Assembly (NCBI GenBank): GCA_051294375.1
Contig: CM119264.1
Coordinates: 15,969,245-16,033,244 of the forward strand
DNA: 64,000 bases
Direction of reading: 5' to 3'
From: Paraspadella gotoi
Taxonomy: Eukaryota; Animalia; Chaetognatha
A program made the position numbers and the translations under genes. The notes beneath the pieces are model-generated. The model had not been told where the DNA came from. It did no database searches and saw only the letters and a program-made list of their open reading frames with translations. Positions 10,767 to 64,000 of this stretch are shown one piece after another (position 1 is the stretch's first letter; the number at the start of each line of letters is the position of its first letter).

Positions 10767-11281
10767 CTTACCTGTCAAAAAAATTCGTTGCCACATTAAA
10801 ACTGTTTTTCCTAAACACAATGTTTATAATTTAAACTTGTTAATAATTTGCCAATCAAGTAAATTAATTAACAATTAACAATATTATTATATGGTAAAAT
10901 AGTATCTAAATGAATTTATGAATTAACATATTTTTTTATAGTAATATCCGAATATTATTTAAATAATTTTATCTTGTAACAATTACATTTTGTGATCAAA
11001 AATTAAAATTAATTGCTTTGGATCATAGAAGTTTTTGGGGTTTTCAGTTTTAAAAAACATTATTAAATTAATTGATTAACTTAAAGCTGAGGTAAGTCGC
11101 CTCAAAGCATTTAAAGATATCAAATATTTTCATTACCATGATTAAAATAAGTTATCTTTAAAAAAATAGTAAATTATAATTTATAAATGACATATTGGTA
11201 ATAACCTTTCTTTTCGTTGTTCTATGTATTGAGGCAAAATAATTTTTGTTTTACAACGAATTTTTTTATTTTCATAGAAAA

Positions 11282-11325
11282 AACGGACAATGTTTCGGCT
11301 TTAGTTGCAAGCCTTCTTCAGCGTT
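11282..11325 (-). ncRNA. Minimal hammerhead ribozyme (inverted copy, 1-nt insertion in stem III)
   Basis: AACG-CTGAAGA-A-GGCTT..AAGCC-GAAAC-ATT-GTC-CGTT on the minus strand. Confidence 0.75.
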
Positions 11326-11670
11326 AAACAATTTGTGAATTTTGGACAGTTTTTTGTGTGAAAGAAGGGGGGGGGAGAGAGAGAGAGAGAGAGAGAGAGA
11401 GGACAGTTTAAAAACTTTATTTGTTGTACATTTGAAATGTATTATTTTTCTCTCTCCCTGTCTCCCTCTCTCTCTCTCTCTCTCAATCTCTCTCACTCTG
11501 ACCATTTCATTTCCTATTCACAACTAAAATCTCTATTTGTCCTCATTCTTAACCTGTCCCTCACCACTTGACCACTATTCTTTCTCAACTCTGTGTTGGA
11601 AACTTTGCCCTGTCTCTCTCTCTCTCTCCCTTCTTTCACACAAAAAACTGTCCAAAATTCACAAATTGTT

Positions 11671-11713
11671 AACGCTGAAGAAGGCTTGCAACTAAAGCCG
11701 AAACATGTCCGTT
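11671..11713 (+). ncRNA. Minimal type I hammerhead ribozyme
   Basis: Stem I AACG/CGTT, core CTGAAGA, stem II GGCTT/AAGCC, GAAA, palindromic stem III ACATGT, predicted cleavage after GTC (11709). Confidence 0.9.
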
Positions 11714-11841
11714 TTTTCTATGAAAATAAAAAAATTCGTTTGTAAAACAAAAAACATTTTGCCTCAATTTTAAATGTTAAAAAAATATTTGAGATTAAAG
11801 ACGAAATCTTTTACATCAACGATTTTTTATTTTTTAAAGGT

Positions 11842-11881
11842 GCATACAAGTTTCGGCTTTCATTCAAGCCTTCATCAGTGC
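11842..11881 (-). ncRNA. Minimal type I hammerhead ribozyme
   Basis: GCA-CTGATGA-A-GGCTT gaatga AAGCC-GAAAC-TT-GTA-TGC; lies in a minus-strand PLE tail (~11790-12280). Confidence 0.85.
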
Positions 11882-12386
11882 TTTGACAATTCACAATTTG
11901 ATCTTTTTTAAATTGACTTTGAGAGAGAGAGAGATAGAAGAAATGGCCAACAAAGATGTGAGACAGGACAGTGGTGAAATGTGAGGACAGGTTTAAGAAG
12001 AGAGAGAGAGAGAGAGAATGTGAGGGAAAAGAAATTAAATTTTGTGAGTGAGAGAGAGAGTATGAAATACATTAGATAATGTACAACAATAATAAATTTA
12101 TTAAATAAGTAACAGACTTAAACAAATTAAATGATTTAAATTAATTCAGATTAAATAAAGTGAATAAAGAAATGAAATTTAGATGAAATGGAAATAAGGA
12201 TGTTGAGGGATAGGTAAGTGAAAGAGTAAGTGAAAATTAAGAAAAAGAAAAGCTCAAAAGGAGCTGGCCCCCCCCCGGCGATGTAAAAGATTTCGTCTTT
12301 AATCTCAAATAACTCAAACACAACGAAAGAAAGTTTAATCACAAAAAAATATTTAAATATTTTAGTCTTCAACACCCTTGGCTTAA

Positions 12387-31514: not shown

Positions 31515-33432
31515 TTTTTTAACACCGAAAAGTTTTTAATAGCGATCTTCCAGTATTATTCACATTGTAGGTATATTTTAATTTTTTTTTATTTAATAGA
31601 AAGACTTCTTTACTCCGCGTTTATTTTCTCAGTTTGGCATATGGAAGAGGTAAAAAAGGTAGTTGACTTTTTCACAGGTTAATTTTCGAGTGACAATTAC
31701 GAGCTTCCTGCCGATTTTTAAATTGATTGCGATCCCTGAGGTTCTTTGGTAAGTTTTTAAATTTTGTCTGGCAGTTATTTTTTTTCTTGGCAGTTTCCAA
31801 GATGTCCATGAGATGAAAATCATGAATATAAAAAGTTTACGAACACAGTCAGCAGAGTCGACGATGGATGAAGCGAAGAAAAATCCAGTATAACGACAAA
31901 ACGACGTTAAAAAGCGAAATTATACATAGATATATATAAATTTTATATATATTGTATTTTCATGGATATTGACTGGGATTTTTTTGGTTTCGATTCTGGC
32001 AACGAAAAATCTCCGCGCTTCCGGGAAGAAGAAACCGGTCCACGGAGTGATGAATCGAGGATAAAGAAAAGGGCGTTGATCAACTAAACGAAGGATGAAA
32101 GTTAATCCGGGTTGCGATGTGCGTGAATGGGGGAAGAATACAATTTCACTCGAAATTTCTCCATGCTGGCGGAACAGAAACCGAAAATTGTTGCTTATAA
32201 TAGTAAAATCCTAAAAATAAAGAAGAACAGGGAGATCCAGCTCTTTTGGGACTAACTTCAAGTGCTTACAGCACAGAAACGGTTTCAGATAGAAGATAAA
32301 ATCTTAAAAGTATCTCGCCAGACGTTACTATCAAAGAAAATTAATAAACAAGTTTGAGCAAACAATGACGGATCTGCCTACGATAATTAATTAATTAATC
32401 GATTAATTAATAAATTTTAATATGTAATAATTAATTTTAAATTTATATTCAACTTATCATCATCGATGTCCTTAAAATTGGGTTAGGACAGTTATTAAAT
32501 ATGTTTTGTTTACATTTTATCAAAACAAAATAATATCCTCTATTTTATTTTATGTCTCCTTCTCTCTCTCTCTCTATCTCTCACTCTCTCTCTCTCTCTT
32601 TTTATACAATTGCAACGATCTTTATGCTTTTAAGAATTTTTTAACTTGCATCATTTTTTCACATTAATTAATTAATTAATTAAAACATTTATTAATAATC
32701 ATTAGCTTTCTGGAAATATTTTTTTTCCTTTCGATTATGTTAGGAAGGTGTTTAAAAATGATCGAGAACGTAGTGTATCAAGATGGATTCAGATTTTTAA
32801 AAACGTTCACCCAAGTGATCACACACATATATACTTTAATTTAAAACCCCTTTTCGATTTGAAATTCTCAACATGAGAGATCCCGGTCGATTTTATCTGG
32901 CTCCTAAATTATGCAAATTAGCTTACGATCGAATTTGTCAGATAACGATGACGCTCTTTATTCGCGTAATTTTAAACGTTTTATTATTGTAATATAATCA
33001 ATAATTGAATATTTTAGTTTTTAGAATATATATTTTATAAATATAAATAGTTTATAGTATTTATACTAATATAACTAAGACAAAATAGCAATTAAATGAG
33101 AGCTTGAATGCTTTTTTTTCTTACCAAAATGAGATTTTTACATAAAATAAAATATTAACTATTTTGCTTGCTTAGGTTCCTTAATACATATAATATAATA
33201 TAAATTTCATTATAAATTGTATAATTCATTCGTTTAAGTTACCATTATACGTGCTTTAATAAATAGGTAAATATGGAAAAACTTGATAACAAAGATTAAA
33301 ATAACCAATAAAAATAAAATTTAAAAAAAAAAAATAATACTAATTATAATATTATCAAAAATATAAAATAATATTATTATAATATTTAAGAATTTAATAG
33401 ACATTGTGTAGGAGACGAATGGTCAAATTCCA

Positions 33433-34734
33433 ATGCTCGATGTGCTTATAAAGCGCAGAGAGGGCGGCTCATTGGAATTTTCAGTATATCGCAAACCGAC
33501 CCACACTGACCAATATATTCCCTTCGATTCGCATGCTCCCTTGTCACACAAGCTCGCCACGGTCAGGTCCCTTACCAGGAGAGCTCAACTGATTCCGTCG
33601 ACCCCCGAGCTCCAGGCCGCCGAGCTTGAGCATGTCAAAAGAGCCTTGGCGCTCAATGGTTACCCTCTGTGGGCATTCGAGAAGGCCAGGTTTCGGCTGA
33701 ACCAAGCTGAGGGCAGTGGCCACCAAGGGGCTGCCCAAGTAACCGCTGACGCAAGCTCAACCTCCGCCCCCCAGGAGGAAGAGCGAGGCCTTGCTGCCGA
33801 AGTACCAACAGCGCCCACCACAGCGCAACCGGGAGATAAGCAGAAGCGTCTCAAGACCGTAGGTCACTTGTCCCTCCCCTACCACCAGGGGATCACTGAA
33901 GCTTTGGTGCGGGTGCTAGCAAAGCAGGGGATCTCCACTTCAGTGACGACCCGCGGCTCTTTACGTGAGCAATTGGTGAAACCGAAAGACAAAATCCCCA
34001 GACCGAAAACATCAGGAGCCGTCTATTGGGCGGCCTGTGCAGGGGCGGGCAACCAAGCCTGCACAGCAGCATACGTGGGTGAGACAGGGAAGTCTCTATC
34101 AGATCGGTTCCAACAGCACAAGAAGCCGTATAAAGACAGTCGAGGCCACTACCTGTCGGCCATAGCAGAACATTCGGCCAATACGGGCCATCTGTTTAGA
34201 GAAACTGACTGTCTCATGCTGTCCCATGACCAAAACTGGTTCTCAAGAGGTATTAGAGAGGCAATTTACATCAAAGCCCTCGAGCCCTCTCTGAACCGTG
34301 ATGGAGGACGATTCGAGCTCCCTCCAAGCTACGATTCGCTCATCAAGTTGGCGGTGGAACACCCTACACCACCCCAACCGCACGGTGATTCCCCTGTCCC
34401 CACTCAACGGGTCAGGCGGAGGCCTCTCAGCAGGCAATGGACGTCCGATGCCTCTCCTGAGCCTACAGCAACTTGGTGTGACCCTTCTCACACTGAGCGT
34501 CGACCAAAACGACGGCTGCAGGAGGAAGGAGAGGAGTCTGTATCACCTGCATCCAAGCAGGCAAGAACAGGCAATCGCCCACCTCACCGGCAGGTGAGAG
34601 GAGGGCAGTCGGCAGGCTTATCAGGCCAAAGAGATATTCGAGTGGCACTCGGCATCTTCCCAAGTGGATCACTACCCGATCCCAGGGTGTCGAACTCTAC
34701 AAAAATATCTTCTCAGCCTTTGACAGGTCAATGA
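33433..34734 (+). CDS. Penelope RT thumb + GIY-YIG endonuclease (truncated ORF)
   Basis: IPMLDV, VYRKPTHTDQY, NGYP, LPY, GAVY..C..C..AYVGETG..L..RF..H, SAIAEH, REAIYI..PSLNRDGG. Confidence 0.93.
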   Translation: MLDVLIKRREGGSLEFSVYRKPTHTDQYIPFDSHAPLSHKLATVRSLTRRAQLIPSTPELQAAELEHVKRALALNGYPLWAFEKARFRLNQAEGSGHQGAAQVTADASSTSAPQEEERGLAAEVPTAPTTAQPGDKQKRLKTVGHLSLPYHQGITEALVRVLAKQGISTSVTTRGSLREQLVKPKDKIPRPKTSGAVYWAACAGAGNQACTAAYVGETGKSLSDRFQQHKKPYKDSRGHYLSAIAEHSANTGHLFRETDCLMLSHDQNWFSRGIREAIYIKALEPSLNRDGGRFELPPSYDSLIKLAVEHPTPPQPHGDSPVPTQRVRRRPLSRQWTSDASPEPTATWCDPSHTERRPKRRLQEEGEESVSPASKQARTGNRPPHRQVRGGQSAGLSGQRDIRVALGIFPSGSLPDPRVSNSTKISSQPLTGQ

Positions 34735-34969
34735 CCCGATCACATCGTCAACGTCCCCCATTTGCCGGCCGGGGGGGGGCCAGCTCAATTTGAGCTTCTT
34801 TCCTAACTTAATTTTAACTAAAATCTTTACTTACCTATCCCTCACCACTTATTCTTCAAATTTCACTTTCACTTATACTCCATTAGTTAAATCAACTATT
34901 TATTATTATTTGTTATTATTCATTTAGTTTACTGATTCATTTATCTTTGTTGTACATTTCAAAATGTAA

Positions 34970-35005
<36 letters not shown>

Positions 35006-35099
35006 CACCATTTCAAAATCAACTTATTTCCCCTTTCTCCTGTCCTTACCTTCACCTGTCCTGAATTCTGACCACTGTCCTTTCTCAATTCTTTGTTGG

Positions 35100-35143
<44 letters not shown>

Positions 35144-35180
35144 ATCCCCAACTTTATGATTGTGAAAAATACAACTGTCA

Positions 35181-35225
35181 AATGCTGATGAAGACTCGAA
35201 AAACAAGAGTCGAAACATGTCCAAT
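35181..35225 (+). ncRNA. Minimal hammerhead ribozyme of the PLE
   Basis: CTGATGA-A-GACTC gaaaaacaa GAGTC-GAAAC-AT-GTC; stem I AATG/CAAT has one mismatch. Confidence 0.85.
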
Positions 35226-35937: not shown

Positions 35938-36169
35938 TGAAGAGACAGTAATTATTGTTGTGTTAGTGACAGAACCGTTCAATATAAGCAGTCCCTGAGC
36001 TTCGGATCAGGCTGTAATACCAGGTTACAGGCGGGTTAAGCGCTCCGTCCCTCTTAACTGCCAGACGACCACCGGGCTAGAACCCCGGACCTTTGGGTTG
36101 GGAGGCGAATGACTTGCCTCCGGCACCAATGGCCGCTGATTAACGGTTGGTGGATTTTAGTCCACCATA
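35938..36169 (-). mobile_element. Solo-LTR-like unit with tRNA-like head and twister, family A copy 1
   Basis: 232 bp, TA...CA on the minus strand, 4-bp TSD TGTC; tRNA-like segment 36065-36136. Confidence 0.85.
35988..36061 (-). ncRNA. Twister ribozyme-like motif, type P5, family A
   Basis: GCAGTT AA GAGG GA CGG AGCGCT TAA CCC GC CTGTAA-loop-TTACAG CCTGA T CCG AA GC TCAGG GACTGC; predicted cleavage between 36038 and 36037. Confidence 0.82.
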
Positions 36170-36766: not shown

Positions 36767-37000
36767 TGAAGAGACAGTTATTATTGTTATGTGCTAGTAA
36801 CAGAACCTTTCAATATAAGCAGTCCCTGAGCTTTGGATCAGGCTGTAACACCGTGTTACAGGCGGGTTAAGCGCCCCGTCCCTCTTAACTGCTAGGCGGC
36901 CACCGGGCTAGAACCCTGGACCTATGGGTTGAGAGGCGAATGACTTGCCTCCGGCACCAATGACCGCTGATGAACGGTTGGTGGATTTCAGTCCACCATA
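36767..37000 (-). mobile_element. Family A solo-LTR-like copy 2
   Basis: Homologous to 35938-36169, with its own 4-bp TSD AAGG. Confidence 0.85.
36819..36892 (-). ncRNA. Twister-like motif, family A copy 2
   Basis: Same fold; T1 loop CCA versus CGG (one mismatch), P1 GGCGCT, P3 CTGTAACA/TGTTACAG. Confidence 0.75.
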
Positions 37001-39829: not shown

Positions 39830-39869
39830 CTTGTGAGACAACAAAAAAAATTAATCACGATAACATCGT

Positions 39870-40164
39870 ACAAAAATTCATTGGTCCTTCCGTCCCTAAG
39901 TTGACGTCGATGTGGATAAGGCTGCCAAGTGCCCACTCAGCAGCACTGGAACGGGTCCTGGGCTTGGAACCAGGCTTAGGGGTTTCCCAGGCCCCCAAGG
40001 CGGTTTACGGCTATCCTCACGCTTCCCGCAGGGGAGGTACCAGGTTGGGATTGAACCCGGTACCTAGTGGTCATGAGCAGATGGCTTTACTCAATGAGCC
40101 ACAGGGTCACAAGTGAAGGTGTCATGCTTATAAACGGGGTGAACTTGGGCAATGCCCGACTACA
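39870..40164 (-). mobile_element. LTR-like unit with TATA, tRNA-like head and twister, family B (MRPL39 intron 3)
   Basis: Starts TGTAGTCGG; TATAA; A box TGGCTCATTGAG, B box GGTTCAATCCC; 3' end and TSD not resolved. Confidence 0.65.
39951..40029 (-). ncRNA. Twister ribozyme-like motif, type P5, family B
   Basis: GCGGG AA GCGT GA GGA TAGCCG TAA ACC GC CTTGGGGG-loop-CCCCTAAG CCTGG T TCC AA GC CCAGG A CCCGT; T1 TCC/GGA. Confidence 0.82.
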
Positions 40165-40238
40165 TATATTTTTTTAATGTTAGTTTGTTGTATTGATACA
40201 CTGATGCACACTAATTAGTAGTACAACAATTAAATTAC

Positions 40239-47570: not shown

Positions 47571-47778
47571 TATGGTAAAATCCACCAACCGTTCATCAGC
47601 GGCCATTGGTGCCGGAGGCAGGTTATTCGCCTCCCAACCCAAAGGGGTTTCTAGTCGGGTGGTCTCCGAGCAGTTAAGAAGAGGGATGGGGCACTTAACC
47701 CACCTGTAACATGGTGTTACAGCCTGATCCGAAGCTCAGGGTTCTGTCACTAACACAACAATAATTACTGTCTCTTCA
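47571..47778 (+). mobile_element. Family A solo-LTR-like copy 3 with decayed twister (47670-47741)
   Basis: TATGG...CTCTTCA, flanks AGTG/CGTG; small deletions and CpG-type transitions. Confidence 0.8.
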
Positions 47779-48822: not shown

Positions 48823-51800
48823 CTATTCGAGTAATCGATTCAAGACTTCGATCTGAGTCACAAAAGGTAAAATCCTCATCGCAATGAGAATCGTTTTGCG
48901 AAACAAACGCGATGAACAAGGCGCCCCAGATAGTCTACCCGTGTCATTTTTATTGTCATGACATATTTGACCGCTTTTATTTCGATTTCGATTCGATACC
49001 ATATCCACCTGACTCCTTGCTCCAGATGCCAGTTTCAAGAAGAAGAGAAATACCGGGTCACGATCGGCGTCCGCGGAATTAAATCCCGACAATTTTTTAG
49101 CGGCTAAGCGGCCTGTGAATTCGGCGATGCGGAGAATGATGAAAAGGCTGAAGTGAAAGCCGGATTCTTCGTTTAGAGAACGAACGTTTATGAAATCTAT
49201 TAGAGTCGAGTAAAGTTGAACAAAATTCATGACGATTAGATGGGAGCATTCAGATGATTTTCCCGCTGCGATATGAATCCCGGCATGTTCTAACGTAAAT
49301 AACAAGCGCCACGCATTAGTTACCATTCGCCCAACAATAAACCACGGTCGAAGTATTTGGGTGTCGTATTCCCGAAGGAATTTCAGAGGGGAATCCGAAT
49401 CCTCGTTCACCTCTGGAGCAATCCAATTTTTTTCGACCGCATCGAGCATAAAAGCGACGATTCCTCTGCAGCGATTCTTATCGAGAGTCTTGATGAGAGT
49501 TGCTAGAATCGTAATCGCAGAAACTTCATCGAGACAGCCAGTGACGGTTTTGTCGGAGCAGCCCAAAGATGGGTGGAGAGAGGCCGCCGCCACGAACAAA
49601 TGGATCCAATCCTCAGTTCCTCGCGGTGACGCCAATGAAGTCCAAAGCGTCTTAGATGCTTCTATCGCGTTTCGGCATTTTGGTTCTATCGCGGTAGAGG
49701 CTTCAATAAAGGCCGCGGCCGTTGAAAATGAAAAAGATTGGAGAATAAAGGAAGTCAGCCATGCAAACGAATCATCGCTTGTGGGCAAAGATAGAGCCAA
49801 AGATGCAGCTAACCTCGTGGCTTCCGTCTTAAGATAAACGTCGGGGAGGAAATGAAGCGTCGAAGAGTCCACGATTCTCAGGAGGCGCATTATGACGTCA
49901 AAGGGTTCAGCGATGAGTGTCAGCCACTTACACGCAGCACGTCCTTTTCGCGTGAGGTTTACCAGAAGTTCTAAGCTAAAAGACGCGGATGGGTTGGCAG
50001 GGTCGAGAAAGGCTACAAGAAAATCCATAATAATTCTCTTTGCAGTCGAATAGAATGGACGTGAAGGGTCGTGGCGAAAACGAGGTTGAAAAGCTGTGAG
50101 CGTCTCGACAATAAAGTGCTTAAAGCAGAATCGCTCCTTCTCAGTCAGAGAGACATTAAAAGATAAAAAAATATCGCGAAGAAAGTCAAAAAAGACATGC
50201 CCTACGCCACCCTTTTTATCGCTTTCGCCGTTTTCAACGCTCATCACCAAAAAAGGAATACGATCGATAATCTGTAAAACTGCGACAGATTTTTCTGTTG
50301 ACGTCAAAATTTGGCGGAAAAGTAGTTCAGCCGTTCGTCTGGCGTCTTTTAAGCAAAGGTCCAGGATTCTATTCAAAGAAACTTGAAACTCTTTGAGGAG
50401 CGAGGAATCAACGAGTCGATTCAACATAATTGTGGCTGCCTGTTCGAATTCGGTAATAGCTTCGTTGTTGGTGGGCAGAAGAAAATTAACGAGCGTTACG
50501 TTCGATTGTAGCCAAAAAAGAAAACGGACTTTCTGTTTGATAGATGAGGCTGTGAAAGACGTTATGAAAATAGATTTTAAATGTTGGGCTACTGCCGGAT
50601 CGGCGATTGCCGTCGTTGCCAATAATTCCTTCATTAACCCTTCTTCTAAAGCAAACAATTCACAGTTGACGCAGAAAAACTCGGAATATTCTGACAACCA
50701 AAGGGAGTCCTTAACGACCTGGCGCATGCAGGCAATCCTCAGATGTTTAGGAGAAGAACGGCTAATGAGCAGTTCCATTATGCTAGTCTTTGTAGGTTTA
50801 ATCGCGAATAGGTACTCTTCTCTTGCGACGGATATAACTTTCAAAAATTTCAGCAAAAAAATTTCAATATCTGGAGTCTTCAGCTCCGTTAAGAATATAA
50901 GGTTAATGGCCGAGCGAACCGTCTGGACTAGAGATTCCTCCTTTTCACGGATAAAAGCTGTTTCAGATAGACCAAAATTAATTGGTGTTGAAGCTCGAAA
51001 AAATTCCTCAAGAGACACAAGAAACTTGGAATTACAAAGACGCGTCAACGTTGTTTTTAACAATCGAGACACCATCCAATGATGATTCTTATTCATCGGA
51101 TGAATGTCTTTGGTGGACGAATAAGTCAACATTGTGTCCGGTGGATTCTCTGCCAGGTCCTCATCGATTTTGCTAGAAATGAAGCGCGATGCTTTGCCAA
51201 GCTTTTTTGACATCTTCTCTGTCTGATATATAACATTGTTAGCGGTTGTGAAAGAAAACTGGAACTCTAAATTTTGGTCGCCTCCACCATGTACCTGCCC
51301 TAAAAGATCAAGTAGGTCATTCTGAGTTTGCTTCAAAAAATCGCGATGGATCCAGTACAAGGGAAAAAGGGAAGCCGCGCTTCTTGGAGGGGTCCCTAAT
51401 TGAGCCTCTTTCCAACACACGATTAATGTGACCAACAGCTCGAAAACGATGCCGGTAGAAGCGTGAGAAAGCCAATCAGCTTCAACCATAACAATTAATT
51501 GTCTAATTAGCGACAGAAAATTTTCGTCGTCATTTTCTCCGAAGACGAGAGTATTTTGAAATATAGCGAGAAAATGGAAGAAGGAGACAAGTCTTGGGAA
51601 TGAGTTTAGATCGCTGTCGGATTCCATCTCCACCAAAAATGATGGCCATACATCCGCCTGCAATGCCGGTTCCAGTTGCAACACTGCCTTTGCCAGAGCT
51701 CGGACCCATTCCGTCCCAGCTGATCGGGTGAGCTCCGACAAAAAATTCGGGGGAAAGCGAGAGATGGAGTTTACAGCGCCCTCCAGCGCCGAACCGTCGT

Positions 51801-52080
51801 GGCGGGAAGCTACTAGAGTCGCGGTACGGGCGTGCATGCGCACATGTTTTTCGACAAGCACGGCGGCGAGAATGAGGCGCCACTCGGCGACAGAATATTC
51901 CGACGAGGCAACGGCGACGACTTGTTCGAGGGTAACCGCGACTCGCGAAACAAGAGACGGGTCCCAATCCTCGGGGTGGTCTTCACAAAGAGACGACTTC
52001 CAGGAGCAATTCCTGGAAGAGGCATCGGTTCGCAAAAAGGCACTCTGAAGATGTAAGAACTCAGATCGACATTCGAACAT
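48823..52080 (-). CDS. GEMIN4: Gem-associated protein 4 (SMN complex), intronless 1085 aa
   Basis: Colinear similarity with recalled human Gemin4 (L.xxFL..D/E...DW, EFEQAATIMLNRL vs GFQEDLNTTFNQL, WLTLIAEPFDVIMRL vs WLQTCSPFPLLFSL) and similar length. Confidence 0.75.
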   Translation of the reverse strand: MFECRSEFLHLQSAFLRTDASSRNCSWKSSLCEDHPEDWDPSLVSRVAVTLEQVVAVASSEYSVAEWRLILAAVLVEKHVRMHARTATLVASRHDGSALEGAVNSISRFPPNFLSELTRSAGTEWVRALAKAVLQLEPALQADVWPSFLVEMESDSDLNSFPRLVSFFHFLAIFQNTLVFGENDDENFLSLIRQLIVMVEADWLSHASTGIVFELLVTLIVCWKEAQLGTPPRSAASLFPLYWIHRDFLKQTQNDLLDLLGQVHGGGDQNLEFQFSFTTANNVIYQTEKMSKKLGKASRFISSKIDEDLAENPPDTMLTYSSTKDIHPMNKNHHWMVSRLLKTTLTRLCNSKFLVSLEEFFRASTPINFGLSETAFIREKEESLVQTVRSAINLIFLTELKTPDIEIFLLKFLKVISVAREEYLFAIKPTKTSIMELLISRSSPKHLRIACMRQVVKDSLWLSEYSEFFCVNCELFALEEGLMKELLATTAIADPAVAQHLKSIFITSFTASSIKQKVRFLFWLQSNVTLVNFLLPTNNEAITEFEQAATIMLNRLVDSSLLKEFQVSLNRILDLCLKDARRTAELLFRQILTSTEKSVAVLQIIDRIPFLVMSVENGESDKKGGVGHVFFDFLRDIFLSFNVSLTEKERFCFKHFIVETLTAFQPRFRHDPSRPFYSTAKRIIMDFLVAFLDPANPSASFSLELLVNLTRKGRAACKWLTLIAEPFDVIMRLLRIVDSSTLHFLPDVYLKTEATRLAASLALSLPTSDDSFAWLTSFILQSFSFSTAAAFIEASTAIEPKCRNAIEASKTLWTSLASPRGTEDWIHLFVAAASLHPSLGCSDKTVTGCLDEVSAITILATLIKTLDKNRCRGIVAFMLDAVEKNWIAPEVNEDSDSPLKFLREYDTQILRPWFIVGRMVTNAWRLLFTLEHAGIHIAAGKSSECSHLIVMNFVQLYSTLIDFINVRSLNEESGFHFSLFIILRIAEFTGRLAAKKLSGFNSADADRDPVFLFFLKLASGARSQVDMVSNRNRNKSGQICHDNKNDTGRLSGAPCSSRLFRKTILIAMRILPFVTQIEVLNRLLE

Positions 52081-52862
52081 GTCTTTATTTTAGCTATAAA
52101 AAAATAAAAGAAATGAGAATGGTAGAAAACGAAAGGCGCGGTTCAAAATCCGGCACATTTTCTGTTTTGAGCGTCAGTTTCGCTCTGCCTACTAAAAATT
52201 GTGCAGTCATTTGAAGAAATACGACACAATATTACTATATTAGGGGGAAACTAACTCAGTAAGGTGGTTAAGAAATTTGAATTAAGCACCTGCTCAAACG
52301 AAAATTTAAACATTTTTTAAAAAAAATTGAATAGATAAATTTTTTTAATATTACTCCATATATTAATTTTTTAATATTTATTTATTTATTTTTTATTTTT
52401 AAGATCAGATTCAGGTAGATTGCAAAAAGTTGTCTACACAAAGTATAATTCTTTTTTGTATATTTTGATCATAAGTGTATGAAAAATATGAAAAACTATT
52501 TATAATCATCATCATCATCATTTTTCGATTATTTTATTACTTTTTCTTAATTTTGACCAAGAAAACCTAAATATTTTTGAAAGTTGTAGTTAAATTTTTT
52601 ATTTAACTTTTTATGCTCTATCAGAATCCATCAAAAAAAGATTGATTAAAAATTTTTTTTATCATGATATATTAATATTGTAATTTTAATAGCAACAATA
52701 AAAGCATTAAAATCGAACACTTTTTAAAAATTCTTTTTTTACCTAAAAGTAGACTTCAAGACTAAAGTTTTGAACCCCCGCCCCTATTGATTTTTAACTA
52801 TATATAATCAAAACAATAATAATTTTCGTATCCTAAATAAAGCATTTTATAAATAAGTATTT

Positions 52863-53234
52863 TCACTTGTCGCCGCACGGTACAAATTTTTTCGATTTGG
52901 ACGCTTTCTTCTTTCTTTTTTTAGCCAAGTAGGCATCCAACTTTCCCGAACGTTTGAGAGTTTTAAACTTTTCGGCTAACTCGATTTTCTTTTTCTCGGA
53001 GTTCTTGAGGTAATAACGTTTTTTACCCTCAGCGACTTTATCGACTTCAATTTTTTTTATTTCCCGCAATTTGACCGATACTTTCTTCTGCGTCTTTGTC
53101 AGTTTTCCGTTTGATTCCAGATTGGCCAACATGTTTTCTGCTGTCTTCACTCTCTCCTCGTCCTTCTCAAGCTTCACAAAACGCTTTAGGTTTTGCGCGT
53201 CCTCGCCTCGAACTTCTTCTAAAAATGCGTAGCC
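52863..53234 (-). CDS. RRP36: rRNA processing protein 36, last exon
   Basis: GYAFL..., GKKRYYLKNSE.KK...KF..LK.SGKLD.YL.KKRKK.ASK motif. Confidence 0.9.
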   Translation of the reverse strand, partial: GYAFLEEVRGEDAQNLKRFVKLEKDEERVKTAENMLANLESNGKLTKTQKKVSVKLREIKKIEVDKVAEGKKRYYLKNSEKKKIELAEKFKTLKRSGKLDAYLAKKRKKKASKSKKFVPCGDK

Positions 53235-53301
53235 CTTAAAATAAAAAAAAAAGTTAATTTAATCATAAATCATCAGCTCAGTTATTCTTTATTTTTGATA
53301 C

Positions 53302-60354: not shown

Positions 60355-60687
60355 TGTAGCCTGAATCAAATTCAATATAAAATTAATGAAAATAGAGTCA
60401 TCATCGGGATTCGAACCCGATGTTCCCTGGCCATGATAATTTGATCATGACCACTCGGCCATCATACACTTTTACTTATTTAATGTTAACATCTCAATAA
60501 TAATTATCAGGATCACATATTACTTTATCAGGCGCCTGCTTTAACCGTTACATATAGATCAAGCAGACTATAATTTGAACTATGAAAGATGGCGACATCT
60601 TGTGATGCTAAGTTGATGTCCGTGACTGCAATGTATTGTTGTATCACTTTCACTTTTCTCTGAATAATAAAAAGTCCGTTTCCTACA
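60355..60687 (+). repeat. 5' LTR with antisense tRNA-like segment
   Basis: TGTAG...CTACA, AATAAA near the 3' end, followed by PBS-like TGGTGAACCC (60690); minus-strand A box TGGCCGAGTGG and B box GGTTCGAATCC. Confidence 0.8.
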
Positions 60688-61218
60688 ACTGGTGAACCCT
60701 TCCTATACGAAATTAAAGCCAACCTTCTGATAAAAAACAAGCCTTAGAAAATGCAATCCAACAAAGATTAGCCTTGAAACAGAACTCATGTCTGTCTGTC
60801 TAGCTCTCTCTTGATGCCCTCAAAAGTCGTATGAATCAAAACAAACAAAATAAGTGCATCGCCAACACAGCTGACGGTCCACGGGAGGCGCCCATCAATG
60901 GAAATTCATTCTCCCTCAGGTAGGCAAGACGAGAACCGAATATTAGGCGCCTCTTGCCTTCTCTCACACTCTTTTCTCTCCCACCCCCACTCTCCCTCAA
61001 CTCCCCAACCTCGGACGACGCCGGATGAGTGGAACTGACCGACAACTCCGCAGCCACGTATAAACTCCTTCCTTTTTGGCGAGGCTACCAACGAGCGTTG
61101 GAATCAGTTTACCAACTACCTGAAGGCCGAATACGGCCGCACGAGGTCGCAGCAAGCTGCCTCATTAATTGACGGTATCCGTCGTGAAGGACGTCGCCCT
61201 TCACAACTCCTCGCGATC

Positions 61219-61710
61219 ATGAAGGAGAAGGCAGGCGACGTAAGCGTCGACGACATTCTCAAAGAGTTGTTAATACGCGAATTACCAATTGAAGTGCAAC
61301 GTAACCTGGCTGAGCGAGTAGAGAAAGTCGATGCTGAAGCAGCAGCACAACTAGCGGATTCGTATTTCGACAAGGATGGACAGACCCTTCATGTCTCCAA
61401 CACCTCGTCGACTATCAACGCCGCTGTCCCACCGCTGATGCCCGAAGATGCCGCAGAGGAAGGCGACTCCATCAATGCCATCAATCGTCCACGCCAACAA
61501 CCTTTCCGCCGCAGCAACCCGTCGACTCGATTTCCCAACAGGAGGTTCTCCGCCAACAAGGCAAACCCTCCACGCTCGTCAAATGCAGCAAAAACTACCT
61601 CCGTGGAGGTTTGTTTCTATCACAAAACCTTCGGCGATGCCGCAAGGCAATGTGAACCGGGCTGCTACAAAAACAAGGCGGAAAACTTCAGGGCCGGAGG
61701 ACGGAGGTGA
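61219..61710 (+). CDS. Gypsy gag, C-terminal part
   Basis: RRPSQLL..MK, AAQLADSY, VCFYHKTFGDAARQCEPGC. Confidence 0.85.
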   Translation: MKEKAGDVSVDDILKELLIRELPIEVQRNLAERVEKVDAEAAAQLADSYFDKDGQTLHVSNTSSTINAAVPPLMPEDAAEEGDSINAINRPRQQPFRRSNPSTRFPNRRFSANKANPPRSSNAAKTTSVEVCFYHKTFGDAARQCEPGCYKNKAENFRAGGRR

Positions 61711-63460
61711 ACGCCGTCGCTCCCGGCCAAAATCTCAAAGACCAAGGAAACCTTCTCTTCGTTCACGATGCTGTAAACAATTGCAACTGGCTCATCGATG
61801 GTGGAGCCTTAGTCTTGATAGTTCCACCGAGGACGATAGAAAACAAGGAGAAACCCCAACCAAATTGCAAGCTGCAAATGGCACCCTAATACCCTGTTAT
61901 GGATATAGAGATGTGCAAGTCCATCTCGACGGGAGAAAATTTCCATACAGGCTTACCATTGCAGACGTGTCCCAACCCACTCGGATCAGATTTTTTGGCC
62001 GAAAACTACCTTGCTCCCAACCATCGCGATGGTTTTTTACTTGACTTGCAGGATTATTCGATTTTGAGAGCACAACACTCACCTGTAGAAGAAACAATCA
62101 GAGTAAACTTTGTAGATCAATTAGACGACCCTTACTACAAGCTGCTGGACAACTATCCAGACCTCTGTACACCCTCCTTCAAACCCAAGGAACCAAAGCA
62201 CGGGGTTCGACACTACATCCCCACAGGTCGACCCGTCCAATCCCAAGCCCGCAGACTCGCCCCAGACAAACTCAAGGTAGCGAAGGCCGAGCTCAAAAAG
62301 CTCTGCAATTGGGCATTGCCAAGCGCGCCAAAAGCGAGTGGGCCTCACCGTTGCTGGTAGTCAGTAAACACGACGGCGGCTATCGAGTCTATGGTGACTA
62401 TCGACGGCTAAATAACATCACAACTGACGATAAGTATCCCGTCAAAACATTGAACAACTTCAATGCAAATCTAGCCGGTAAAAAAGTGTTCAGTAAGATA
62501 GACTTACTAAAAGGCTACCATCAAATTCCAGTGGCCGAAGAACATGTCAAAAAAACTGGAGTCATTGCCCCTTCGGCCTTTTTGTCTTTCCCCGCACCCG
62601 CTTTGGGTTAAAAAATGCGGGGCAAGATTTCCAAAGACTCATGAATGAAATCTTGGCCGACATACCTCACGTATTCGTCTATATAGACGATATCTTAGTA
62701 GCCTCAGCAAACCACATCGAACATGAGCAACATCTCAAAGAGGTCTTCGAGATCTTAAACCAGAATGGCCTTGTAATAAACCGGAAAAAATGCGTTTTCG
62801 GTAAATCGTCCCTCGAATTCTTGGGCTATCACGTGGATCAAAATGGAATCGCACCTTTACCAACTCGTATCGAGGCAATCCAGAAAACAACGCCGCCCAC
62901 CTCGAGCAAGGAGCTCCAGAGGTTCCTGGGCATGATCAACTATTACAGGCGATTCTTACCCAGGTCGCCCAGCACATGTACCTATTGTTTGAGGCCCTCA
63001 AGAGTAAGCCCAAGATCCTCAAGTGGGACGAGCCATGCCAAGCTGCATTCGAATCCACAAAGGAAGCTTTGTCCAAAGCCGTCATGCTCCACCACCCTCG
63101 AGCAAATGCTCAACTCGCCGTAACAGCCGACGCCTCCAACACAGCGATAGGCGCCATACTCGAGCAGCGAGGCCCAACTGGGTGGGAGCCTTTATCCTTC
63201 TTCTCAGCGAAGCTTCATGCCAACCAGCAGCAGTGGCCTCCTTTCGACAGGGAATTGCTGGCGGCCTTCCGCGCGATTCAACACTTTCGACCGATGATTG
63301 AAGGCCGCAGTTTCACCCTGTATACCGACCACAAATCTCTCGTCCCCGCTCTTGCTAAAAAATCTGAACCACACACTGTCAAACCTATCAGTTGGCGGGC
63401 ATAGCGGAATTCACTACCGATATCTGGCCGGTAAAGCAAACGTGGTCGCCGACGCACTGT
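61707..63460 (+). pseudogene. Frameshifted pol (protease-RT-RNase H)
   Basis: Fragments across frames: WLIDGGA, WASPL, GDYRRLN, KIDLLKGYHQIP, YIDDILV, FLGMINYYRRF, ADASN, FDRELLA, YTDHK. Confidence 0.9.
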
Positions 63461-64000
63461 CAAAACCAAATGCACAAAAACAAGCCACTCCCCCTTCTCC
63501 ACCTCCCCCTTCACCTGATTCTACTCCGCTCTCATTCTTTCCCTCATTATCCTTACCCAAAAACCAACCCCCACCCCCAATAGTGGCCTCAATTACTAAA
63601 CCAGTGACTGATGACAAACAAAACCAATTCAATATCGTCGTCAACTCCATCCTCCAACACGGCATTGACCTAGAAGCGATGGCTGCCGACCAAGCACTTG
63701 ACGCCGACTTTCAGCGCATTTTCCAGGATGCACAGACAGGTCTACGATTCCGACGCGTCCCAATCGGTGAACAAATAGTAGTCGATGTCAGCAATGGTCC
63801 CATCCGCCCATTATTCATGACGCTGACGAGAACCGCCAACGTCGCCTCCTGCTTGCCAATCTCCGACTCGAAGTGTCTCGCCTCCAACCAACAGCCACGT
63901 CAACACATCGCCAGCCTCAAATTCATATACCTACAAACCTCCGCAACGCCTCAACACGTTTTCGTCCACCGCGGAGGCGTGGACCCGCCACTCAGCGCCA

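Follow-up and report, generated by a model that had tools for sequence, protein, structure and literature searches.

The DNA that we analyzed, a window of 64,000 nucleotides from Paraspadella gotoi, is AT-rich (~30% GC) and contains many repeats as well as genes with introns. One of these introns, defined by its splice sites and by the reading frame, holds a copy of a repeat of a family that we refer to as B, inserted in the sense orientation. Judged from its sequence, the surrounding gene likely encodes the mitochondrial ribosomal protein mL39: exons upstream of the B-bearing intron matched mL39 with E values of 8e-6 and 0.19, and the exon after this intron gave no match. A copy of a second family, A, lies antisense within an mL39 intron (A3), and two further copies, A1 and A2, are also present in the window. 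In run X9, which is an RNA sample by guess only, the two exons flanking the B-bearing intron were both covered at a depth of 131 and the unique intron flanks were uncovered; contigs of A and B were present, and none of the contigs listed joined exon to exon. Directly upstream of mL39 exon 1 is an intronless frame of 1088 codons (48823-52089, minus strand) with no Pfam match, and an exon of the rRNA biogenesis gene RRP36 (Pfam E 4e-23) lies at 52863-53258 on the minus strand. The coordinates of the elements and of their parts are collected in Table 1.

Table 1. Host intron, repeat copies and parts of the twister-like fold in the window
Feature	Position	Strand	Remarks
Host intron of the B copy	39830..40238	-	409 nt, GT..AG; from splice sites and frame
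Family B element	39911..40164	-	~254 bp; 5' end TGTAG at 40164, putative 3' end ..CCACA at 39911
TATAA	40128..40132	-	~20-24 nt before the tRNA-like head; from sequence
tRNA-like head	40036..40109	-	box A 40101-40090, CAT 40075-40073, box B 40057-40048
Type-P5 twister fold, family B	39951..40029	-	29/29 modelled pairs form
B twister P5	40029-25/39955-51	-	
B twister P2	40022-19/40004-02	-	
B twister GA	40018-17	-	
B twister T1	40016-14/39968-66	-	
6-nt linker in place of P1	40008..40013	-	TAGCCG in the window copy; palindrome CGGCCG in the majority
U^AA	40005..40007	-	predicted cut 40007 (U) / 40006 (A), by alignment with the layout in the available text of PMC8501958
B twister T2	40001-00/39963-62	-	
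B twister P3	39999-75	-	
B twister P4	39974-57	-	
Family A, copy A1	35938..36169	-	232 bp, TATGG..CTTCA; duplication GACA/GACA; intact twister 36061-35988 with predicted cut 36038/36037, linker AGCGCT
Family A, copy A2	36767..37000	-	234 bp; duplication CCTT/CCTT; one T1 mismatch
Family A, copy A3	47571..47778	+	208 bp; duplication AGTG/CGTG (3/4); T2 changed, P5 3' strand deleted

Both A and B are interspersed repeats of high copy number whose ends are sharp. Among the contigs of four runs, which came from three studies and were compared at 80% likeness, 3155, 3838, 1716 and 349 matched B, and 7115, 14295, 2258 and 908 matched A. The summed contig depth over B in run X1 was 17,000-575,000 vs 24-32 in the flanks, a measure of abundance and not of copy number. 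Depth dropped to the single-copy level outside ~39916-40170, and the 5' edge of B at 40164 was marked in each of the four runs by contigs with loose ends and unrelated flanks (40, 48, 43 and 17 of them). At the putative 3' end of B no target duplication was seen (TATA vs TCGA, one copy). Past 39929-39947, B has at least two types of tail; the window copy fully matches neither, and most copies differ there. The ends of A, at 36169 and 35938, were fixed in 142/102, 189/103, 96/62 and 35/30 contigs, whose flanks were unrelated (agreement 0.40-0.44). All three copies of A in the window read TATGG..CTTCA and have 4-bp duplications, exact in two and identical at three of four letters in the third. 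Such TA..CA ends and target duplications are the footprint of the LTRs of Helenus, mini-retrotransposons with a tRNA promoter. Neither A nor B contains a poly(A) tract or an internal T4 run.

We considered whether A1 and A2, which are 598 bp apart, are the two LTRs of one element, and rejected this reading on the separate duplication that each possesses. A DNA transposon was likewise rejected; inspection by eye revealed no terminal inverted repeats longer than 3-4 letters. All four window copies of A and B are single units, and no two-LTR copy enclosing a PBS and a PPT was found in the 64-kb window. Head-to-tail joints or tandem copies were absent among the contigs listed, in which loose ends led into unrelated flanks and shared internal parts are collapsed.

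The original prediction had placed a tRNA-like head with CAT in the anticodon position, an upstream TATAA and a TGTAG start next to the B twister, and all of these were found. Among the variants listed, the only common changes inside the B TATAA were at 40131 and accounted for 1-5%. Box B reads GGTTC in B, A1 and A2, and box A fits TRGCY..YGG only in part. A functional tRNA-Met was rejected, as ARAGORN made no tRNA call and the head folds as two hairpins rather than as a cloverleaf; the head of B is likely a Pol III promoter rather than a working tRNA. In both families, a fixed leader of 30-55 nt upstream of the head travels with the element. A transcript that started at the head would lack this leader and could pass it on only if another copy of the element lay downstream, as in LTR elements. 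In A, leader positions 36149-36141 can pair with the post-twister tail at 35982-35974 (minus strand) over 9 bp when the majority letter is present at 36141, and this pairing also appeared in the fold of A2; it would imply an RNA that contains both parts, for example a circle or one that includes a second LTR. A third tRNA-like sequence, at 60475-60360 on the minus strand (box B at 60417), is followed by a T run, ends in ..CTACA and has no twister; it resembles a plain Helenus LTR or SINE, and ARAGORN made no call for it either.

Read from 40029 to 39951, family B has in order P5, AA, the 3' strand of P2, GA, T1, the 6-nt linker, U^AA, the 5' strand of P2, GC, P3, P4 with the loop U-UCC-AA-GC, and the second strand of P5; we mapped this layout from the available text of PMC8501958 and PMC5408937. 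The order is the same as in the type-P5 twister of Rfam (RF02684), P5-P2-GA-T1 ... U^AA-P2-GC-P3-P4-L4-P5, and the pseudoknots and the active-site G and A are shared as well. P4 of B forms five of five pairs, its loop L4 (U-NNN-AA-GC) is exact, and both pseudoknots are complete in B and in A1 (T1 3/3, T2 2/2). All 27 modelled pairs of A1 form (P5, P2, T1, T2, P3, P4), and U^AA and the GA of loop L1 are present in B, A1, A2 and A3. The two families differ from RF02684 in P2, which has strands of 4 and 4 nt there and of 3 against 4 nt in A and B, and in the A-U pair with which family A closes P4.

A search of 351 nt with the Rfam Twister-P5 model gave a score of 17.1 bits (E 0.3) for B, below the gathering cut-off of 37.6. 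A1 and A2 had no twister match at E<=10, and the Rfam twisters found nothing at gathering score or E<=10 over the whole window. A loose twister descriptor matched 204 of 1000 shuffled windows; when only the B region (500 nt) was shuffled, 4 of 5000 sequences matched. When P3 and P5 were required, the descriptor matched 1 of 1000 shuffled windows vs two real loci in the window, and RNA of the plus strand gave no descriptor match. With the pseudoknots left out of the energy, the modelled folds lay at -23.1 vs a minimum of -28.7 kcal/mol for B, at -15.3 vs -21.6 kcal/mol for A1, and 12 kcal/mol above the minimum for A2; folding z-scores of B and A1 were near zero. We also scanned for the pattern of a twister lacking P1 and obtained 17 loci from viruses, 7 from metagenomes and 2 from genomes, which we judged to be chance matches because none of the 26 had P4 at 4/5 pairs or better; the scans of prokaryotes, phages and metagenomes used exact patterns, which diverged relatives would escape.

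All strand pairs listed for 39951..40029 in the original prediction, which gave no strand, are present, and the motif lies on the minus strand. In B the strands are P5 GCGGG/CCCGT, T1 TCC/GGA, P2 AC/GT, P3 CTTGGGGG/CCCCTAAG, P4 CCTGG/CCAGG and T2 GC/GC, and the AA, GA, TAA, GC and AAGC positions agree with those of family A. Comparison of A with B revealed 10 double changes, 1 single change and no breaks among 24 compared pairs, in what is a single family-to-family comparison with registers set by eye. The doubly changed pairs are distributed over T1 (2/3), P3 (4/6), P4 (1/5), P5 (2/5, plus the single change) and P2 (1/3), with none in T2 (0/2). Compensatory changes had been claimed for every helix; they occur in T1, P2, P3, P4 and P5, but T2 is invariant and the claim left out P1, which cannot form inside a single copy. 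The broader proposal that B is a second twister family, covarying with A and placed behind a tRNA-like head, is supported by both the fold and the double changes.

Variation from copy to copy follows the fold. For the variants listed inside the ribozymes (25 of 40 rows for B and 12 of 40 for A, with 7 and 4 further rows unlisted), shares refer to the depth summed over contigs and do not count copies. Fourteen of those listed for B reached at least 5% in run X1 or X3, six in loop L3, two in the linker and six in helices, and five of the six helix variants keep the pair. Those listed for A at this level numbered eight: four in L3, two in the linker, both of which keep its self-pairing, and two in T1, one of which breaks the pair (5.7% and 13.6% of depth). 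Listed variants in the unpaired core and T2 of B stayed below 3.3%. We consider it very probable that a mobile repeat carries a twister fold, and we predict that this twister is probably active in most copies.

The unequal P2 had been proposed as a possible mark of a new twister subtype. Both families show it, as do most of their copies, but P2 on its own is weak ground for a subtype, because imperfections in P2 were well tolerated in a large assay of natural type-P1 twisters (PMC11662667, in the part available); a review, citing a warning, mentions the suggestion that a change in P2 length disturbs the active site (PMC5408937, likewise in part). The first P2 pair covaries, with C-G in family A against A-U or G.U in family B, and the best register has a bulged base followed by a final C-G pair; a 4-nt P2 in a shifted register was rejected, being mismatched in A and B by eye. 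The 3-against-4 P2 is a mark of shared lineage and not of a subtype by itself.

The strongest new lead is the palindrome that stands in place of P1. The gap from T1 to AA spans ~21 positions in the Rfam P5 model and 7 here, 6 of which are the linker. In family A, the linker is AGCGCT in A1 and GGCGCT in A2 and in more than 99% of depth, and is self-complementary. This palindrome was noticed ahead of the read comparison, in which the majority linker of B then also proved palindromic: CGGCCG made up 96-99% of B depth in X1 and 93-98% in X3, and the window copy carries a CG-to-TA change. In summed contig depth, 98.6% (X1) and 97.9% (X3) differed from the window copy at 40012, and 96.3% and 93.0% at 40013. 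The window B copy is thus a decayed minority at this hexamer, its palindrome gone. From A to B, linker positions 1/6 change from G.U to C-G and positions 3/4 from C-G to G-C; since positions 3 and 4 are neighbours, they could pair only with another strand. The calculated self-duplexes of the palindromic linkers have energies of -8.3 and -10.7 kcal/mol vs -1.3 for the window B linker, and no hairpin was obtained for any linker computed. A random hexamer would be equally self-complementary with a chance of ~0.02-0.05 per family, and the argument draws on two families only, which share descent.

Hammerheads that act as dimers in amphibians have a stem reduced to a single pair that is closed by a palindromic tetraloop (PMC7229834; PMC6765202, both seen in part). 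Like A and B, the minimal type-I hammerheads of Penelope-like elements and amphibians, as far as these sources describe them, have a shrunken core stem and a palindrome, and a second copy completes them; they are, however, another class of ribozyme, and dimer action has been shown there, whereas it is only predicted for the A/B twister. Because the reduced P1 and the palindrome mirror these dimer-cutting hammerheads, we infer dimer action here too, and slightly favor the view that the hexamer pairs between two ribozymes. The window itself contains an open frame of 440 codons at 33412-35220 (plus strand), followed by a minimal hammerhead core at 35185 with the palindrome ACATGT at stem III; the frame has no Pfam match and is presumably the end of a Penelope-like element, and the core has the design of dimer-type hammerheads, within the genome that also carries A and B. 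Three further hammerhead-like minimal cores (11321 minus, 11675 plus and 11878 minus) lie in an inverted repeat at 11228-11900, with no coding frame nearby. No dimeric twister was found in the literature searched, where dimer-dependent cutting was described for hammerheads only; subscription papers, the original papers on the twister, the mini-twister and the dimer-acting Penelope hammerhead, and the supplements of twister surveys, which may list such sequences, lay outside that search.

Cutting may not require a dimer, given that P1 is dispensable in published twisters: open-ended forms cut at near the wild-type rate (PMC5408937; PMC11662667, in the parts available). The same repeats might thus carry a twister that cuts as a monomer, with the 6-nt linker as a tether, made up of one pair and a tetraloop, and the palindrome either incidental or serving a self-inhibiting hairpin. 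In this respect, the linker region of A2 is paired to the P2/T2 strand in the minimum-energy fold, and by inspection the B copies with G at 40004 (45-70%) could pair likewise, so that pairing of the linker with the strand after the cut could replace, or add to, the dimer as a self-inhibited monomer state. However, such a hairpin uses linker letters 1-4 and leaves letters 5-6 unexplained, the palindrome is retained in those B copies that have A at 40004, and two different palindromes arose or persisted in the two families. The published tests of P1 lacked a P5-type twister with a 6-nt tether, and the survey in PMC11662667, in the part available, covers type-P1 permutes only. We regard the monomer as unlikely, though the best of the alternatives.

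The repeat that carries the twister-like fold is young, abundant, tRNA-headed and LTR-like. Helenus elements, or TRIMp3, are TRIMs with tRNA-like Pol III promoters that are moved by Gypsy elements (Kojima 2024, PMC10886601); those of animals make 4-bp duplications, and four LTRs that start with TA were found in the available part of the supplement. They resemble A and B in having a short LTR-like unit with an upstream part, tRNA-like boxes A and B, TG or TA..CA ends and solo copies. They differ in that, as described there, their LTRs stop a short way past the tRNA, in many cases in a T run, whereas in A and B the head is followed by the twister and a tail with no T4; the internal part of Helenus has no counterpart for A or B in the window. 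The word twister is absent from the available text of PMC10886601, and none of the motif matches listed from it has a twister loop behind a tRNA head, with the reservation that line breaks may hide motifs there.

The LTR retrozymes of plants, according to the part of PMC4918200 available, contain a hammerhead in their LTRs, have 4-bp duplications, solo LTRs and a predicted circular intermediate, and are moved by Gypsy elements. A and B resemble them in the ribozyme inside a putative LTR, in their putative solo LTRs, in the 4-bp duplications seen in A and in the predicted circular intermediate moved by Gypsy, but plant retrozymes have type-III hammerheads and are described without a Pol III promoter in what is available of PMC7761336, whereas A and B have a twister and a tRNA-like head. 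The families thus look like a union of Helenus-type TRIMs and plant LTR retrozymes. Elsewhere, Perere-3 has twister T-variants with a weak P1 at its 5' end (PMC8501958, in part), but this is a type-P1 twister in an autonomous LINE whose P1 is partly formed by host flank, in contrast to the P5-type twister of A and B. We found no twister in a TRIM or a tRNA-headed element in print; Repbase, subscription papers and the supplements of twister surveys were outside this search.

A tRNA-derived SINE-like or non-LTR retrozyme, moved from tandem arrays by a LINE or Penelope-like enzyme with the 4-bp duplications as a by-product, is a less likely reading still. It has a precedent in the SINE-like repeat of Schistosoma, in which a Pol III promoter of the tRNA type stands upstream of a ribozyme as in A and B, although that ribozyme is a hammerhead and the repeats are tandem (PMC6765202, as far as available). 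The Penelope-like frame with its minimal hammerhead in the window, and the absence of a PBS or PPT from the window and from the contigs listed, agree with it too. Against it, both ends of A are base-exact in more than 100 contigs per deep run, A ends in CA without a tail and has duplications of a single length, and metazoan non-LTR retrozymes are described as tandem with longer duplications (PMC7229834, in part). The fixed leader before the head, together with the CA end and the 4-bp duplications of A, departs from the hallmarks of SINEs, and we somewhat favor an element of the LTR type. A twister relic that has lost cutting in every copy through its short P2 and lost P1, with helices kept for RNA stability or enzyme recognition, is highly improbable: B falls below the Rfam cut-off and A gives no match, A2, A3 and the window B copy are all damaged, and the modelled fold lies above the energy minimum, but the catalytic G and A, both pseudoknots and L4 are kept in both families, L3 varies freely, and listed variants in the unpaired core and T2 of B are rare.

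Our working proposal, to which we give about an even chance, is that A and B are solo LTRs of a small, non-autonomous Pol III LTR retrotransposon whose twister cuts when two copies pair through the hexamer. In the full element, two LTRs would flank an internal part. Transcription by Pol III would begin at the first LTR's tRNA head and, because the LTR has no T4 terminator, would continue into the second LTR and reach the second twister. The two hexamers would then pair to form one shared P1 of 6 bp, so that at each active site one twister would contribute its 5' half and its partner the 3' half. Cutting at the two U^A sites would free an RNA of unit length that bears a 5'-OH and a 2',3'-cyclic phosphate and that the host ligase RtcB may close into a circle, a step that has been shown for hammerhead retrozymes (PMC7229834, in the part available). 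A Gypsy-type partner would copy and integrate the RNA circle, as in the retrozymes of plants, and solo units might be left by recombination or by short cDNAs. A frameshifted LTR element of the Gypsy type, its RT and RNase H domains spread over several frames, is located at ~60500-64000 (plus strand) of the window; it is possible that it represents the class of partner for A and B, and no sequence shared between it and A or B was found.

Under this proposal, lone copies would cut slowly or not at all, above all the window B copy with its broken palindrome, and the need for two copies would protect host transcripts in which only one is present. The B copy, which lies sense in the intron of an essential gene and has lost its palindrome, fits such sparing, as one case. 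At its fullest, the proposal would describe the first natural twister that acts as a domain-swapped dimer through a palindromic P1. In an animal LTR retrozyme driven by Pol III, it would be the switch that sets the ends of the element, and the RNA would be cut and circularized only after both LTRs have been transcribed, with thousands of solo copies quiet in host genes. We hold this full version only tentatively and consider it more doubtful than its parts.

Twisters are already in use for making circular RNA in cells, and one that depended on a partner bearing the matching hexamer could act as a convenient two-input RNA switch. If our reading is true, Rfam and descriptors of type-P1 twisters miss a high-copy class of twister, and the cutting would explain how a Pol III LTR element without a terminator sets its 3' end. 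It would also join the tRNA-promoter TRIMs with the LTR retrozymes, and animals would gain an LTR retrozyme. Retroelements would then have converged on a two-copy safety switch, whatever the class of ribozyme.
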